A DNA stretch of 64,000 nt from contig JBFWNU010000003.1 of assembly GCA_050250895.1 (NCBI GenBank), positions 778,109 to 842,108 of the forward strand, in the 5' to 3' direction. This document shows, piece by piece, positions 8,742 to 14,405 of the stretch. Position numbers and translations under genes: made by a program. Under the pieces are notes generated by a model, which was given only the letters and a program-made list of their open reading frames with translations, was not told the DNA's origin and ran no database searches. This DNA comes from Vulcanimicrobiota bacterium (GTDB lineage: Bacteria; Vulcanimicrobiota; Xenobia; Xenobiales; JADMJV01). Position 1 is the first letter of the stretch; each line of letters starts with the position of its first letter.

Positions 8742-9923
8742 ATGCATAACGGTAAAACCCCCGTGATCGTCAGCGCCGTGCGCACCCCGGTGGGCCGCGG
8801 CCGTAAGGGTAGCCTGGCGGCCACCCGCCCCGACGACCTGGCCGCCCTGGTCATGAACGCTGCCCTGGCCAAGGCCAGGGTGGCTCCCGAGATGGTCGAG
8901 GATGTGGTCTTCGGCTGCGCCATGCCCGAAGGCGAGCAGGGCCTCAACGTGGCCCGGCTGGCCGCCCTGCTGGCCGGCTTGCCGGTGGAAGTGCCGGCGG
9001 TGACCGTCAACCGCTTCTGCTCATCCGGTTTGCAGGCGGTGGCCATGGCGGCCCAATCGATCGCCACCGGCATGACCGACTGCGCCATCGCCGGCGGAGT
9101 CGAGTCGATGAGCATGGTGCCGATGACAGGCTATCACCCTTCCATGAATCTGCGCTTGTTCGAGCTGAACCCGGGAGCCTATCTTGGCATGGGCCTGACG
9201 GCCGAGAACCTGGCCAGCAAATACAGCATCTCGCGTCAGGAGCAAGACGAGTTCGCCCTGGCCAGCCACCAGCGCGCCGCTGCCGCTATCGAGGCCGGCA
9301 AGTTCAAAGACGAGATCGTGCCGGTGGAAGTGCGCTTTGACCAGCGCAAAGGGGCCAAGGTCGAGTCGAAGATGATCACCTTCGACACCGACGAACTGGT
9401 GCGCTCGGATACTTCGATGGAGGCGCTGGGCTCGCTCAAGCCTTCGTTCAAGCTGAAAGGCTCGGTCACTCCCGGCAACTCGTCGCCGATCTCCGACGGA
9501 GCGGCGGCTTTGGTGCTGATGAGCGCCGACAAGGCAAAAGCCGAGGGCCTCGAGCCCCTGGCCGAGTTCGTGTCGTTTGCGGTAGCCGGTGTGCCCCCCG
9601 AGATCATGGGCATCGGGCCGGTGGCGGCCATTCCCAAAGCCCTGGCCAAGGCCGGCCTCAAGCTCGACGACATCAAGGTGATCGAGCTTAACGAAGCCTT
9701 TGCCGCTCAGAGCCTGGCCGTGCTCAAGGAGATGAACATCCCCCTCGACCGGGTCAATGAGAACGGCGGCGCCATCGCCCTGGGCCATCCCCTGGGCTGC
9801 ACCGGGGCCAAGCTCTCGGCCACCACCATCCACGAGCTACGCCGCCGCGGCGGCGGCTACGGCATGGTGACGATGTGCATCGGCGGCGGCCAGGGCGCAG
9901 CCGGCATTTTCAAGGTGAACTAG
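8742..9923 (+). CDS. fadA: Acetyl-CoA C-acyltransferase (thiolase)
   Basis: 'NRFCSSGLQ', 'NEAFA', 'GHPLG', 'CIGGGQG'. Confidence 0.96.
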
Positions 9924-10062
9924 CCGTCTTCCGCGAGCTTGGCTGGCCAGCGCGCTCGGCGGGCTTGGCTGGCCGACGCGCTTGGCGGGCTTGGCGGGTA
10001 CGGCACCAGGTGGCGCCGAATTCGGCACGTGGTGGTGCCGTACGGCGGTGGGGCTGGCCTGG

Positions 10063-10094
10063 TCAAGGCATTTCCAAGGCCCCTCGGTTAGGAT
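10063..10094 (+). promoter_or_regulatory. Direct-repeat-activated promoter (TCAAGG-N5-CCAAGG-N9-TAGGAT); equivalent copies at 10445, 10918, 13097
   Basis: Hexamers and -10 are invariant in all 4 copies while copy 4 changes only spacer bases; the same architecture occurs upstream of the CarF-like gene. Confidence 0.7.
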
Positions 10095-10100
10095 TAGCTC

Positions 10101-10158
10101 AGTGAGATGAGCAAACGGTTGGAACTCGGAGGCCCCGGAAACGGGGCCTCTTCCTTTT
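10101..10158 (+). ncRNA. Putative small RNA, copy 1
   Basis: Starts 6 nt after TAGGAT; AGTGAGATGAGCAAACGGTTGGAACTCG, then GAGGCCCCG-GAAA-CGGGGCCTC and TTCCTTTT. Confidence 0.7.
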
Positions 10159-10482
10159 ATTCCCGCGCGGTCGCTGGCCTCGTCTGGCTCGGCGGGCCTG
10201 TCGGGCGCGCCTGGCGGGCAGGGGTAGGGCCGTACGGCGGAGGCTCTCCTGGGCCGTCTTCCGTGCGGAAGTGCCTCGCCGCGGCCTGGGTGTGGCGGGG
10301 CTGGCTGGTTGCTCTTCCGTGTGGAAGTGGCCTCGGCCGAACTGCCCTGGCTGGCCGGCGCGCTTGGCGGGGCTGGCGGGTACGGCACCAGGTGGCGCCG
10401 AATTCGGCACTTGGTGGTGCCGTACGGCGGTGGGGCTGGCCTGGTCAAGGCATTTCCAAGGCCCCTCGGTTAGGATTAGCTC

Positions 10483-10540
10483 AGTGAGATGAGCAAACGG
10501 TTGGAACTCGGAGGCCCCGGAAACGGGGCCTCCTCCTTTT
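10483..10540 (+). ncRNA. Putative small RNA, copy 2
   Basis: Identical to copy 1 except a G.U to G-C change at the base of the terminator stem. Confidence 0.7.
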
Positions 10541-10955
10541 ATTCCCGCGCGGGTCGCTGGCCTCGTCTGGCTCGGCGGGCCTGTCGGGCGCGCCTGGCGG
10601 GGCGGCGGGTAGGGCCGTATGGCGGAGGCTCTCCTGGGCCGTCTTCCGTGCGGAAGTGCCTCGCCGCGGCCTGGGTGTGGCGGGGCTGGCGGGTACGGCA
10701 CCAGGTGGCGCCGAATTCGGCACTTGGTGGTGCCATACGGCGGAGAGGCTGGCTGGTTGCTCTTCCGTGCGGAAGTGGCCTCGGCTGAACTGCCCTGGCT
10801 GGCCGGCGCGCTTGGCGGGCTGGCGGGTACGGCACCAGGTGGCGCCGAATTCGGCACGTGGTGGTGCCGTACGGCGGGGAGGCTGGCCTGGCCCGACTTC
10901 CGGGCGGAAGTGCCTGGTCAAGGCATTTCCAAGGCCCCTCGGTTAGGATTAGCTC

Positions 10956-11012
10956 AGTGAGATGAGCAAACGGTTGGAACTCGGAGGCCCCGGAAACGGG
11001 GCCTCTTCCTTT
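10956..11012 (+). ncRNA. Putative small RNA, copy 3
   Basis: Identical to copy 1 except one fewer T in the tail. Confidence 0.7.
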
Positions 11013-11110
11013 ATTCCCGCGCGATCGCTGGCCTCGTCTGGCTCGGCGGTCCAACCGGGCCAGCCCAGCCCGCGAGCGGGTTCGGCCGGTCGAAGGACGA
11101 AAGGTGAACC

Positions 11111-12067
11111 ATGCGATGGCAATGGTTGATATTGCTCGTGTTGCTCGGTTGTTCGCCCAGGACCACCCCGGTCGAGACGCCCAAGATCGACGAAGCCTTC
11201 CGTCCGCCGGATGAGGCGGCTCGCCAGGCGGCCATCGGCGAGGTGCCAAGCGAGCAAAAGGCCTGGTTCTCCACGGCCCACTACGAGCCGATCCAGGAGC
11301 CTCACTCCATGGACTGGCTGGCCAATCAACACGAAGCCGGGCAGACTTTTGACGAGTTCGTAGCCTCTCAGCCCAATCGCCCGGAGGGGTCCCGGTCGGT
11401 GGTCTACTTCCAGCCTATCGGGGAGTTCGGCGAGGATGCGCCTTCGCGACAGAAGCTGAGCCAGTTCACCTCGGCCTTCTTCGGGCTCAAAGTCGAGTGG
11501 CTCGACCCGCTGCCGACCGAGGGCCTGGGCGTGACCGAGCGTCTCAACGAACTCGAGGGGGAGCGGCAGTTGTTGACCGGGGACCTGCTAAAAGCACTCA
11601 AGAAGCGACTACCCGATGACGCCTACTGCGAGCTGGGCGTGACCATGGCCGACCTTTATCCGCGCGAAGGTTGGAACTACGTGTTTGGGGCGGCCTCGCT
11701 CAAGGACCGGGTCGGTGTCTATAGCTTCGCTCGTTACGACCCGGCTTTCTACGGCAATGATCGCAAGGATGGCTGGCGCGAACTGGTGCTATTGCGAAGC
11801 TGCAAGGTGCTGGCCCACGAGACGGGACACATGTTCGGTCTGGCCCACTGCATCCACTTTGACTGTTTGATGAACGGCTCGAACCACCTGGCCGAGACCG
11901 ATTCCCATCCGCTCTTTCTTTGCCCTGTCTGCCTGCGCAAGCTGCATTCCAGCGTGGGGTTTGACCCGGTGGCGCGCTATCGGGCACTCGAGTCGTTTTG
12001 TCGCGAGAATGGTCTGAGCGGCGAGGCCCAATGGTTGCAGCGACGCCTGGCTGAGCTCGCCGAGTGA
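11111..12067 (+). CDS. Archaemetzincin (peptidase M54) lipoprotein
   Basis: 'HETGHMFGLAHC..DCLMN...LCPVC' zinc motifs; lipobox LLGC. Confidence 0.9.
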   Translation: MRWQWLILLVLLGCSPRTTPVETPKIDEAFRPPDEAARQAAIGEVPSEQKAWFSTAHYEPIQEPHSMDWLANQHEAGQTFDEFVASQPNRPEGSRSVVYFQPIGEFGEDAPSRQKLSQFTSAFFGLKVEWLDPLPTEGLGVTERLNELEGERQLLTGDLLKALKKRLPDDAYCELGVTMADLYPREGWNYVFGAASLKDRVGVYSFARYDPAFYGNDRKDGWRELVLLRSCKVLAHETGHMFGLAHCIHFDCLMNGSNHLAETDSHPLFLCPVCLRKLHSSVGFDPVARYRALESFCRENGLSGEAQWLQRRLAELAE

Positions 12068-12106
12068 CCCAACAGGACAAGGCTTTACCGACCCGAACGG
12101 GGTCAG

Positions 12107-13033
12107 ATGAAGAGACTGTTCTGGTTACTGGTGTTTTGCCTGGTCGGATGCAATCGCACTGTCGTGACCCCAGAGATCCCGCCGCCGTTGGGCGAACTCA
12201 AGTATCAGCTGCAAGGCTACTCGGCTGACGGCCAGCAGGCCTTTGCCACTGACTTGCCGGGCGAGGCACGGGCGCTGCTTGGGCCTGACGAGCAAGGCAA
12301 CATCTACGTGACCATAGACGCCAAGCTGCTAGCCTTTGATGGCAACGGTAACCCGGTGGGCAAGGCCCAGGAGCCGCCGGGCACCCCGCGGGCGTTAGCG
12401 GGCCAGACGATTTTCTGCCAGAGCGAGAGCGGTGTTAGCGCCTATGACCGCGAGGCCAAGAAGGAACTCTGGAGTCGGCAACTCGAGAGCCCCCTCTGGC
12501 TGACTCCCTCGTCCGACGGCTTACTGGTCGGGACGTCCACCGAGTGTCATCTGTTGGATGCCGAGGGCAAGGAGATCTGGAAGGATCAGTTCGAGTATCA
12601 GCCGGTGGGGGCGTCAGCCGCGGGCGGGAGGGTGTTCGTGACGGTCTCCAAGCCGGCGCTCTACGCCTATGACCTGAAGACCGGTAAGAAACTGTGGGAA
12701 AAGAGCTGGGACGGTGGCGAGAACAACTGGGTCGGCAGCGTGTCGACCCCAGAGGCGGTTTTTCAGTCGCTTAGTTCGGGTTTGACGGCGCTCAAAGCCG
12801 AGACCGGCGAGGAACTCTGGTCGTCACCGGCCGAGACCCGGATGATAGCCTACCAGGACGGCAAGGTCTTTGGTCAGGCTCATCTCCACAAGGGGGTGGT
12901 GGTGGATGCCCTGACCGGCGAAACCGTGGCGGAGTTCGCGATGCCAATGTTTGTAACCATCCCCCTGGTTGCCGCCGATGGCAAGTTCTTCGTCACCGGG
13001 AATGTGGTTCCCAAGCTGCCTCAGGAACAGTAG
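12107..13033 (+). CDS. PQQ-like beta-propeller lipoprotein
   Basis: Repeated 'AYDxxTGxxLW' blades; lipobox LVGC. Confidence 0.82.
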   Translation: MKRLFWLLVFCLVGCNRTVVTPEIPPPLGELKYQLQGYSADGQQAFATDLPGEARALLGPDEQGNIYVTIDAKLLAFDGNGNPVGKAQEPPGTPRALAGQTIFCQSESGVSAYDREAKKELWSRQLESPLWLTPSSDGLLVGTSTECHLLDAEGKEIWKDQFEYQPVGASAAGGRVFVTVSKPALYAYDLKTGKKLWEKSWDGGENNWVGSVSTPEAVFQSLSSGLTALKAETGEELWSSPAETRMIAYQDGKVFGQAHLHKGVVVDALTGETVAEFAMPMFVTIPLVAADGKFFVTGNVVPKLPQEQ

Positions 13034-13134
13034 CTAAACTGTCCGTCGCCGTAAACGTGTGCGGCAGCGTCGGTGTCGACTTGCGGCGGAAGTGGGTCAA
13101 GGAATCTCCAAGGCATGTCGGTTAGGATTAGCTC

Positions 13135-13192
13135 AGTGAGATGAGCAAAACGGTTGGAACTCGGAGGCCCCGGCAACGGGGCCTCCTCTCTT
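13135..13192 (+). ncRNA. Putative small RNA, copy 4 (dispersed)
   Basis: Same body with one extra A (frameshifts any ORF); terminator loop GCAA is still GNRA; same promoter hexamers. Confidence 0.7.
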
Positions 13193-14405
13193 ATTCCTGG
13201 AGCGGCCCCATGGGGCTGATCAGCTCACGCAGCGACTCGATGGGCACGGGAACCTGCGTCGGTTGACCATCGTGGAAGAGATCCACTAGCACTAGCTTCT
13301 TGGGAGTGAGGTAGAACTGGGGCTCCTGGTCGAGAAAGTCGTCCGCCATTTTGAACTGGTATTCTCGGTCGGCGATGGGCCCGGCGATCTCTCTGAGCTT
13401 GGGCAGAGTGTCGCCGATGTTGGCTTTGAAGAGATCGCGATAGTTGTCTTGCCGACCGGTGTGAAGGCTGATGTTGCGGGTGGTAAAGGTGCGATTGTGC
13501 GAGCCGGCGCCGCGCAGCTTGCCTGAACTCTTGTAGAGCACGCTGATATAGTCGGCGTCGAGGCGGGTCACTTCGAAGCTGCGAAATTCGTAGTAGTCGT
13601 CTTCCCATTGATAGGGCTTGGGTGGAAAGGCCTCCTCGAGTTCCTTATTGATCCTGGCCTGGAGCTCGGTGTCGACCATGCCGCGCAGTTGGGGATAGTA
13701 GCAGGTGCTATAGAATCTGCCCACGTGCACCTTGCGCCCTTTGGTGACCAGGCGGGGCACACCGGTGAGGTCGGTGAGCAGATGGGTGAGAGCCGCGTTC
13801 TTGACCTCGGCAAGGCCGCCGTCGTCAGACTTCAAGTGGCGGGCGATTTCGACCGCTTCGGGCCGGTGGACGTTGCAGACCAGCTGAATTAGAAAGATGG
13901 AACGCAGCTCGGCATCGCGGCCCGGTTCCTTGCGGTGGCCGAATTCTGCCTCAGACAGCCGTTGCAGACGAGCCCGGGTGTCGTCTCCGAGTTCGGCCAG
14001 GGCGCCTTCGAGGGCATAGCCGACGTCACGATGGGTTTCGACCCGCAGTCGCTGCCGCAGGGGGGCGACGGCGGCCGGCGAGTGGGTGCCACCGAGTAAT
14101 ACCGCGCTCACGTAACGCTCCCAGGGCTCGGGGCTCGAGAGCTGTTTGACCAGCACAGCCACCTGGCCGGGACCGACGCGCGCCCAGTCGCGGCGGGCCT
14201 GACGATAGCGACGCAGGGTGCTGGCGCTGGTGTAGTTGCCCAACTCGTCAAACTGCTGCCAGTAGTGGCGAGCCGGTTCGACAGTCTCCGTGGGCAGTTT
14301 GGCCAGCACGGCCTTGAGGCCGTCATCGCTGCCCCAGCCCTTCTTGAACTGGTCGGCCTGGGCAGCCAGGCTAGCGATGAGCAGGATGGCGAGTAGGCGG
14401 CGCAT
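13191..14405 (-). CDS. Secreted HEAT-repeat protein with C-terminal PdaC/RsiV (DUF4163/DUF3298)-like region
   Basis: Signal peptide; HEAT-like 'LSSPEPWERYVSAVLLG..AVAPL'; 'YPQL..RINKEL..YISVLY..QFYLTPKKLVL'. Confidence 0.62.
   Translation of the reverse strand: MRRLLAILLIASLAAQADQFKKGWGSDDGLKAVLAKLPTETVEPARHYWQQFDELGNYTSASTLRRYRQARRDWARVGPGQVAVLVKQLSSPEPWERYVSAVLLGGTHSPAAVAPLRQRLRVETHRDVGYALEGALAELGDDTRARLQRLSEAEFGHRKEPGRDAELRSIFLIQLVCNVHRPEAVEIARHLKSDDGGLAEVKNAALTHLLTDLTGVPRLVTKGRKVHVGRFYSTCYYPQLRGMVDTELQARINKELEEAFPPKPYQWEDDYYEFRSFEVTRLDADYISVLYKSSGKLRGAGSHNRTFTTRNISLHTGRQDNYRDLFKANIGDTLPKLREIAGPIADREYQFKMADDFLDQEPQFYLTPKKLVLVDLFHDGQPTQVPVPIESLRELISPMGPLQE

Follow-up and report, generated by a model that had tools for sequence, protein, structure and literature searches.

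A stretch of 64,000 nucleotides (nt) from the genome of a Vulcanimicrobiota bacterium (contig JBFWNU010000003.1, positions 778,109 to 842,108; hereafter the window) carries four cassettes of approximately 100 base pairs (bp) at positions 10061, 10443, 10916 and 13095. The original prediction, which was made from the letters of the window, had interpreted these cassettes as promoter-RNA-terminator units of a candidate family of small RNAs (sRNAs). Repeat search grouped the four cassettes into a single 103-nt family, and both this search and the sequence itself agreed with the positions and motifs originally given. Relative to copy 1, BLAST identities of copies 1 to 4 were 100, 99, 99, and 90%, respectively, and the mean column identity of their alignment was 89%. 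In all four copies, GTCAAGG-N4-TCCAAGG-N9-TAGGAT was followed, after 6 nt, by AGTGAGATGAGCAAA(A)CGGTTGGAACTCGG and, 3' of CGGTTGGAACTCGG, by a 10-bp G+C stem with a pyrimidine tail. Four of the five terminator-like sites detected in positions 9700-13500 corresponded to these stems. Hairpins of the cassettes had energies of -32 to -34 kcal/mol (z -4.2 to -4.95), and none of 200 shuffled sequences was equally stable.

Copies 1 to 3 formed a tandem array with spacings of 382 and 473 bp. The promoter of copy 1 (10062..10094, +) comprised the half-sites GTCAAGG (10062-10068) and TCCAAGG (10073-10079) and a TAGGAT -10 box (10089-10094). The predicted sRNA of copy 1, with a length of about 58 nt (10101..10158, +), was given a start by a rule that places the first transcribed nucleotide 7 nt downstream of the -10 box, and consisted of a 5' seed (AGUGAGAUGAGC), a second block (GGUUGGA), a terminator stem (10128-10151), and a U/C tail. 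Corresponding elements of copy 2 were a promoter at 10444..10476 (+; half-sites 10444-10450 and 10455-10461, -10 box 10471-10476) and a predicted sRNA at 10483..10540 (+; terminator stem 10510-10533). For copy 3, the promoter was located at 10917..10949 (+; half-sites 10917-10923 and 10928-10934, -10 box 10944-10949) and the predicted sRNA at 10956..11012 (+; terminator stem 10983-11006). Copy 4 had its promoter at 13096..13128 (+; half-sites 13096-13102 and 13107-13113, -10 box 13123-13128) and its predicted sRNA at 13135..13193 (+; terminator stem 13163-13186). The differences previously reported for copy 4 were all seen in the alignment: its promoter spacers were unlike those of copies 1 to 3, its loop was GCAA instead of GAAA, its stem was kept whole, and a single additional A after GAGCAAA moved the reading frame that starts at the ATG.

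These four copies proved to be part of a larger family in the source genome (9.5 Mb, 63% G+C, 17 contigs). The 12-nt core CAGTGAGATGAG occurred exactly 19 times, two further copies had a T at position -1, and a profile search with nhmmer yielded 22 full copies and one diverged copy. Three additional partial nhmmer matches were second transcription-unit-like stretches that had only the terminator in common with the family. While the copies described in the original prediction were real, the size of the family, about 23 copies in the genome, was therefore underestimated, and the four in the window represent a minority class. Likewise, the reported promoter motif (TCAAGG/CCAAGG/TAGGAT) was confirmed, but as only one of two or three classes. 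It preceded five copies (class A), four of them from the window and the fifth from contig 4. Another 17 copies were preceded by TTTAAC-G-N4-TGTGAC-G-N9-TANNNT (class B), and the diverged copy had an upstream region of a third kind. RNAs of class B corresponded to AGUGAGAUGAGCA(U/A)UGGUUGGACC, with a terminator that differed from that of class A (GCCCCGGC-GAAA-GCCGGGGC).

Copies were also found in related genomes. A congener (G001) contained at least 12 class B copies, whose first 25 transcribed nt were identical and whose spacers, -10 sequences and terminator stem were unlike those of the source genome. With a covariance model built from 21 copies and a threshold of E<=1e-4, members of the family were detected in both genomes of the own genus and in six of eight genomes of a second genus of the same family, and not in a third genus (0/6) or in two other families of the order (0/5 and 0/19). 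An exact-pattern search agreed with these results, and a reversed control gave 0 matches in 40 genomes. In the second genus, only AGUGAGAUGAG(C/U) was constant and the remaining RNA and terminator differed; of 51 full-length copies in the alignment, 48 retained AGUGAGAUGAG. Conservation of the RNA was strongest in its first 11 nt, which are invariant across the two genera, and GGUUGGA followed as a second block that is conserved within the genus. Of the approximately 28-nt segment in the original prediction, it is these first 11 nt, and not the whole segment, that constitute a deeply conserved seed. An exact scan of 185,579 species genomes yielded 42 stretches, 10 of which (11 matches) belonged to the congener; the other 32 were single matches lacking a promoter and a terminator, consistent with chance. 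Tandem pairs at distances of 0.4-1.7 kb occurred in three genomes of the second genus (G009, contig 110: 15254 and 15667, contig 306: 2281 and 2701; G005, contig 7: 197839 and 199506; G003, contig 175: 7841 and 9326), which indicates that tandem arrays are recurrent in the family and no peculiarity of the window.

The register between promoter and transcript was fixed. TANNNT was located at exactly -12..-7 from the A of AGTGAG in all 45 distinct copies from three groups, as compared to 5 of 1886 other AGTGAG sites. A TTTT filter excluded window copy 4 from this count, yet this copy has TAGGAT in the same position. Between TANNNT and the invariant AGUGAGAUGAG, which starts 6 nt after it, 28 distinct -6..-1 hexamers were found, and 35 distinct spacers occurred in the promoters. 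Since these intervening bases varied while AGUGAGAUGAG did not, conservation begins exactly at the predicted transcription start. The 5' ends originally proposed for the window (10101, 10483, 10956, and 13135) coincide with this position, 7 nt after the -10 box. Retention of half-sites, -10 box and transcript amidst 28 hexamers and 35 spacers indicated a constraint on the former elements and not on the filler. Of 42 class-B-type copies, 39 had TRACG half-sites in both of the fixed positions, and all five class A copies had the half-sites of their class. In both classes, hexamers (GTCAAG/TCCAAG in class A, TTTAAC/TGTGAC(G) in class B) occupied positions -39..-34 and -28..-23, with a period of 11 bp and a gap of 10 bp to the -10 box, so that both share the geometry hexamer-N5-hexamer-N10-(-10). 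Some copies of relatives had a third repeat one turn further upstream. In both classes a -35 box at 17-bp spacing was lacking, and a scan with the sigma-70 consensus detected none.

Both motifs also preceded protein genes, which indicated that they are genuine regulatory sites. In combination with a -10 box, the class A motif occurred 11 times in the genome, upstream of five predicted sRNA genes and six protein genes, and the class B motif 27 times, upstream of 17 predicted sRNA genes and 10 protein genes; reversed controls gave 0 occurrences for each. The class A protein genes included two for Pyr_redox_2 (NDH-2-like) oxidoreductases, one for a PF10520 lipid desaturase, and genes for small glycine-rich proteins, and among those of class B were genes for a GntP-like permease, a small orphan histidine kinase, and Gly-zipper proteins. 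In several of these protein genes, the ATG follows the -10 box at a distance of 6-7 nt; they are thus predicted to be leaderless, which confirmed the start-site rule. Directly upstream of one class A promoter, a gene for a REC+BTAD protein (738 amino acids, contig 1:817483-819699) was found. This protein, in which no Pfam DNA-binding domain was detected, provides a lead to a regulator, short of an identification.

The same REC+BTAD protein belongs to a signalling cluster (contig 1:816287-823826) that further encodes a Ser/Thr kinase with a periplasmic-binding domain and a HisKA protein; the class A promoter beside this cluster drives an NDH-2-like gene. Another promoter grammar, TTTCAG-N5-TTTCAG-N10-TAGNCT-N6-ATG, was common in the genome (105 strong cases, for example at contig 5:154679 and contig 3:186962, both on the minus strand) and yields leaderless mRNAs. 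Proteins encoded behind it start with Met-x-Ile/Val (66 of 105 have ATC, ATT, GTC, GTT, or GTG as codon 3); a proline-rich stretch often comes next, ahead of unrelated domains. The two-hexamer register of this grammar equals that of both sRNA promoter classes.

In the predicted centroid fold of the class B RNA, approximately 27 nt at the 5' end were unpaired and followed by a single terminator hairpin with a U-rich tail. Across 50 distinct sequences, all eight stem pairs of the terminator changed on both sides, with 90.4% of cells paired, in counts derived from an alignment that was fitted to the covariance model and from related sequences. This covariation score was reached by none of 500 shuffles, and slid controls were 33-70% paired. 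A gene for Hfq was present in the genome (85 bits, above the cut-off). Outside the crude gene calls lay 19 of the 23 copies, and in 14 of 23 the next downstream gene was on the opposite strand (convergent). This mostly intergenic location, together with convergent neighbours, indicated that the cassettes are not leaders of particular genes. A resemblance of the 5' part of the RNA to a tRNA D-arm was considered separately; this tRNA-related reading was rejected, with ARAGORN finding 0 genes in 16 loci.

The observed anatomy of the genes, their copy number and conservation pattern, the covariation of the terminator, and the occurrence of the promoter motifs upstream of protein genes suggest that the cassettes are probably sibling genes for trans-acting sRNAs with a 5'-terminal seed, predicted to be transcribed as part of two regulons. 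In such a scheme, each cassette would be an independent gene for a non-coding RNA of about 55-65 nt, whose transcription would begin with the A of AGUGAG, 7 nt past the TANNNT -10 box, and end at the G+C-rich intrinsic terminator. Two direct hexamer repeats at a distance of 11 bp, combined with the lack of a usual -35 box, fit activation by a tandem-binding winged-helix regulator, which may be of the OmpR/PhoB/CiaR or the SARP type. The putative two-component activator of the original prediction is supported by this geometry. As two types of repeat precede the same RNA, this RNA would answer at least two different signals. Action in trans would occur by base-pairing through the single-stranded 5' seed, probably with Hfq; the unpaired 5' part, the presence of an Hfq gene, and the strong conservation of the first 11 nt are the basis for this assignment. 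What is predicted from these features is that the cassettes are transcribed, that activators of this kind drive them, that the RNA acts by base-pairing, and that it has targets.

Several results weigh against this interpretation. Search for the regulators gave no identification, and the orphan histidine kinase gene of class B lacked an adjoining response regulator. When duplexes with the 5' regions of 6962 genes from crude calling were predicted, the RNA (top energies -35.7, -34.5, and -33.6) performed no better than the reversed RNA (-34.3 and -33.3), so that no target stood out. Similarly, complements of the 11-nt seed (<=1 mismatch) were no more common than those of a reversed control in five related genomes. 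Flanks of copies in the congener and the second genus, 30 in all, never mapped within 6 kb of a copy in the source genome, and copies within one genome were nearly identical, filler and terminator included. Such near-identity suggests that copies were recently amplified or underwent gene conversion, and would equally be expected of a selfish repeat. The dependence of the covariation counts on a model-fitted alignment of related sequences belongs with these points. Taken together, the absence of synteny and the common filler and terminator within a genome indicate a turnover of the family by duplication or gene conversion. Selection would then hold half-sites, spacing and seed while copies turn over, and the pattern between species, as read from the sequences, argues for a function.

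A selfish or passively amplified repeat, similar to miniature inverted-repeat transposable elements (MITEs) or repetitive extragenic palindromic (REP) elements, would have promoter- and terminator-like parts that are incidental and a transcript without function. Besides the near-identical copies and missing synteny, high copy number is in line with such an origin, as is the position of the tandem copies of the window among REP-like palindromes. These palindromes (9998-10043, 10380-10425, 10693-10738, and 10827-10872) form the filler between the tandem copies. Each is a 46-nt, near-perfect palindrome of the form GTACGGCACC...GAATTC...GGTGCCGTAC, present at approximately 135 loci across the genome and often clustered, for instance 3' of class B copies on contig 3 (~107 kb) and contig 1 (~1.054 Mb). 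They are probably a substrate of tandem duplication that lies outside the RNA genes proper. Apart from these palindromes, the only inverted repeats were the terminator stems. Similarity between copies started at the first half-site and ended after the T-run, with flanks that diverged directly outside and contained no repeats; neither terminal inverted repeats nor target-site duplications were detected at the cassette boundaries, which sets the cassettes apart from MITEs. Moreover, what species and genera had in common was confined to half-sites, the -10 box at its exact spacing, and 11-25 nt at the start of the transcript, whereas filler and terminator sequence were replaced with compensatory changes, a pattern of selection on a transcribed gene. 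The use of the promoter motifs by protein genes and the joining of two unrelated promoter classes to the same transcript are likewise difficult to reconcile with incidental parts. A selfish repeat is therefore quite unlikely, and the MITE without promoter conservation against which the original prediction was to be checked does not match cassettes that have no transposon-like ends and whose promoter elements are kept while spacers vary.

The lack of a prominent mRNA target could also mean that the RNA titrates CsrA or another RNA-binding protein instead of pairing, with the many genes supplying many binding sites. A gene for CsrA is present in the genome (75.5 bits), the second conserved block (GGUUGGA) contains GGA, and class A RNAs have an additional GGAGG. 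Known CsrA sponges, however, present many GGA loops on one RNA, whereas the RNA studied here has one or two GGA, none of them in hairpin loops. In addition, the part conserved in both genera is AGUGAGAUGAG, which has no GGA, and several copies of the second genus lack GGA before the terminator, which makes titration an improbable alternative. That the product is instead a micropeptide (MS...), encoded by a tiny mRNA with a very short leader, would agree with the ATG found 6 nt past the predicted start in all copies and with the many leaderless or near-leaderless mRNAs that this genome appears to use; the predicted peptide would be MSIGWT* for the most frequent class B copy and MSIGWTTPG* for the copy of the congener. 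The frame nevertheless varied among copies (MSKRLEL..., MSIGWT*, MSIWLDLQPR*, MSIVGPPP...), with only the first two codons common to the family, because 1-nt indels between conserved nucleotide blocks shift it. Many copies furthermore had no stop before the terminator or a frame that ran through it, and a coding function appears very unlikely. Still fainter is the case for a cis-acting leader or attenuator of the gene downstream of each copy. Copy 3, which lies 97 nt before a gene for a Peptidase_M54 protein with a lipoprotein-like N-terminus (11111-12067, +), and eight other copies do have a same-strand gene downstream, but with convergent genes next to 14 of 23 copies, downstream genes that are unrelated to each other, a strong terminator, and no predicted alternative anti-terminator fold, such a role is hardly credible. 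As stated in the original prediction, copies 3 and 4 bracket two lipoprotein genes, the second of which encodes a PQQ_2/BamB-like protein with a lipoprotein-like N-terminus (12107-13033, +); these genes are mere neighbours of the sRNA cassettes.

For the predicted trans-acting sRNAs, sites of pairing were further sought at gene starts. Complements of 9-mers of the seed near gene starts (19 of 206, as compared to 4.2% for shuffled words) were enriched, which is partly an artefact because the word contains TG, which the gene caller turns into a start codon. Perfect 11-mer sites in two relatives were at ordinary coding positions, and in the ribosomal RNA operon no complementarity to the RNA was found beyond 7-8-mers. 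Among leaderless candidates, 8 of 931 paired with the RNA at 11 or more of 14 positions, relative to 16 of 7479 controls, an excess that is suggestive only. The seed is complementary to AUGCUCAUCUC, and five genes in the genome, predicted to be leaderless, have TANNNT-N6-ATGCTCATC; three of the five pair with the RNA over 11-12 nt. Candidate leaderless targets, which begin with (A/G)UGCUCAUCUC, are located at contig 6:394923, contig 5:154679 (minus strand), and contig 3:47940.

These observations led to the tentative and rather doubtful proposal that the 5' end of the RNA (AGUGAGAUGAGCAU) is the antisense of leaderless mRNA 5' ends of the sequence AUG-CUC-AUC-UC (Met-Leu-Ile-Ser) and would control leaderless translation by covering the start codon. 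In the other genus, one such gene had orthologues that kept ATGCT(C/T)AT(C/T) at the leaderless start, where the C-to-U changes preserve G-U pairing, and 16 such 5' ends were found in eight genomes of the second, RNA-carrying genus. Arguing against the proposal, orthologues of a second such gene did not keep the sequence, the congener, with its 12-13 RNA copies, had none of these 5' ends, and a genus without the RNA still had four of them in six genomes. If correct, it would represent sRNA control of leaderless translation at the 5' terminus of the mRNA, a mode of regulation that is barely documented.

Directly 3' of some class B copies, a second conserved unit of approximately 250 nt was observed (contig 1:1327852, contig 8:237401, contig 8:368576, and partly contig 1:1611429). 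This unit had a -10-like sequence of its own (CACTATAGG), an 8-nt stretch complementary to UUGGUUGG in the RNA, and a terminator identical to that of the sRNA, and gave no match in Rfam. It may represent a longer paralogue of the sRNA transcript, or else act as a sponge or be a target.

Comparison with known RNAs yielded no family to which the cassettes could be assigned. A scan of the 64-kb window with Rfam 15 gave 0 matches at the gathering threshold; the best sub-threshold scores (sX12, 21.5 bits versus a threshold of 106; BjrC68, 18-22 versus 39) both came from the terminator. A literature search for the core sequence and its complement, which covered text outside supplements, returned only unrelated eukaryotic work among the matches listed, and general searches on sibling small RNAs and on leaderless mRNAs gave no description of this family. 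The proposal of a new family of sibling sRNAs is supported by this Rfam result, by the further copies in the source genome and its relatives, by the conservation of the promoters, and by the absence of transposon ends, all of which are properties of the sequences. As in sibling sRNAs of the csRNA, Qrr, or LhrC kind, the copies are paralogues with a single-stranded conserved segment, a promoter of their own with a conserved, putative regulator-binding site, and an adjoining intrinsic terminator. Qrr1-5 of Vibrio and LhrC1-7 of Listeria are multicopy seed-plus-terminator RNAs under a two-component regulator, partly arranged in tandem, and the family described here would be of the same type. Qrr genes have sigma-54/LuxO promoters and LhrC RNAs have CU-rich loops; neither matched the present RNA in sequence, and copy number is several-fold higher here. 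Pho-box and SARP-type promoters consist of heptad direct repeats with an 11-bp period that replace the -35 box. The cassette promoters resemble these in having two to three direct repeats at 11-bp spacing, the last of which ends approximately 8-10 bp short of the -10 box, and in lacking a -35 box at 17 bp, although their repeat sequences differ from those of published Pho boxes. One class A promoter also has the REC+BTAD gene as a neighbour.

The closest parallel is formed by the csRNAs, CiaR-dependent sRNAs of streptococci. Promoters of csRNAs are reported to consist of TTTAAG-N5-TTTAAG with a -10 box ten nt later; transcription starts 7 nt after that box, and a terminator follows (PMC3091779). 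Several short paralogous RNAs per genome, a hexamer-N5-hexamer direct repeat, the same spacing of -10 box and start, and an intrinsic terminator are common to both systems, and csRNA genes make up a large share of their regulon (PMC3091779), as do the predicted sRNA genes at 17 of 27 class B promoters. A similarity to csRNAs was detected neither in sequence nor in Rfam, however, and half-sites differ (TTTAAC/TGTGAC and GTCAAG/TCCAAG versus TTTAAG), so that neither the NTTAAG-N5-TTTAAG repeat nor the sequence relatedness that marks the csRNA family proper was found. Further differences are the approximately 23 copies as opposed to 2-6, the two promoter classes on one RNA, and the different lineage. 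The csRNA seed is an anti-Shine-Dalgarno stretch, whereas the seed in the present RNA is G/A-rich and located at the extreme 5' end. The cassettes thus appear to represent a previously undescribed sRNA family that may work in a csRNA-like manner and that, by its half-sites and RNA sequence, falls outside the csRNA family. A link to a regulator is also reported for LhrC, which has been connected with LisR (PMC5880928).

Notable in this family are the approximately 23 copies, the unusual feeding of one seed by two promoter classes with two presumed regulators, and the prospect of a regulon in which sRNA genes are the majority. If transcribed, it would be among the largest sibling sRNA families described, in a poorly studied lineage with genomes of 6-9.5 Mb. 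With 17 of 27 promoters of one regulon driving sRNA genes, post-transcriptional control would be the main output of the pathway. The turnover of copies between species, combined with fixed seed, half-sites and spacing, would make the family a clean system for studying how sibling sRNAs multiply. Additionally, the promoter grammar hexamer-N5-hexamer-N10-TANNNT-N6-start, often leaderless, should be usable to annotate starts and regulons in this lineage.

Two further features were observed. Downstream of copy 4, the window contains two adjacent paralogous genes for type I phosphodiesterases/nucleotide pyrophosphatases (PF01663; 15125-18525, minus strand). Elsewhere in the genome, the transfer-messenger RNA at contig 4:741155-741536 has an unusually long predicted tag of 21 residues (ANDNVVQFRGRAPQRALALAA).

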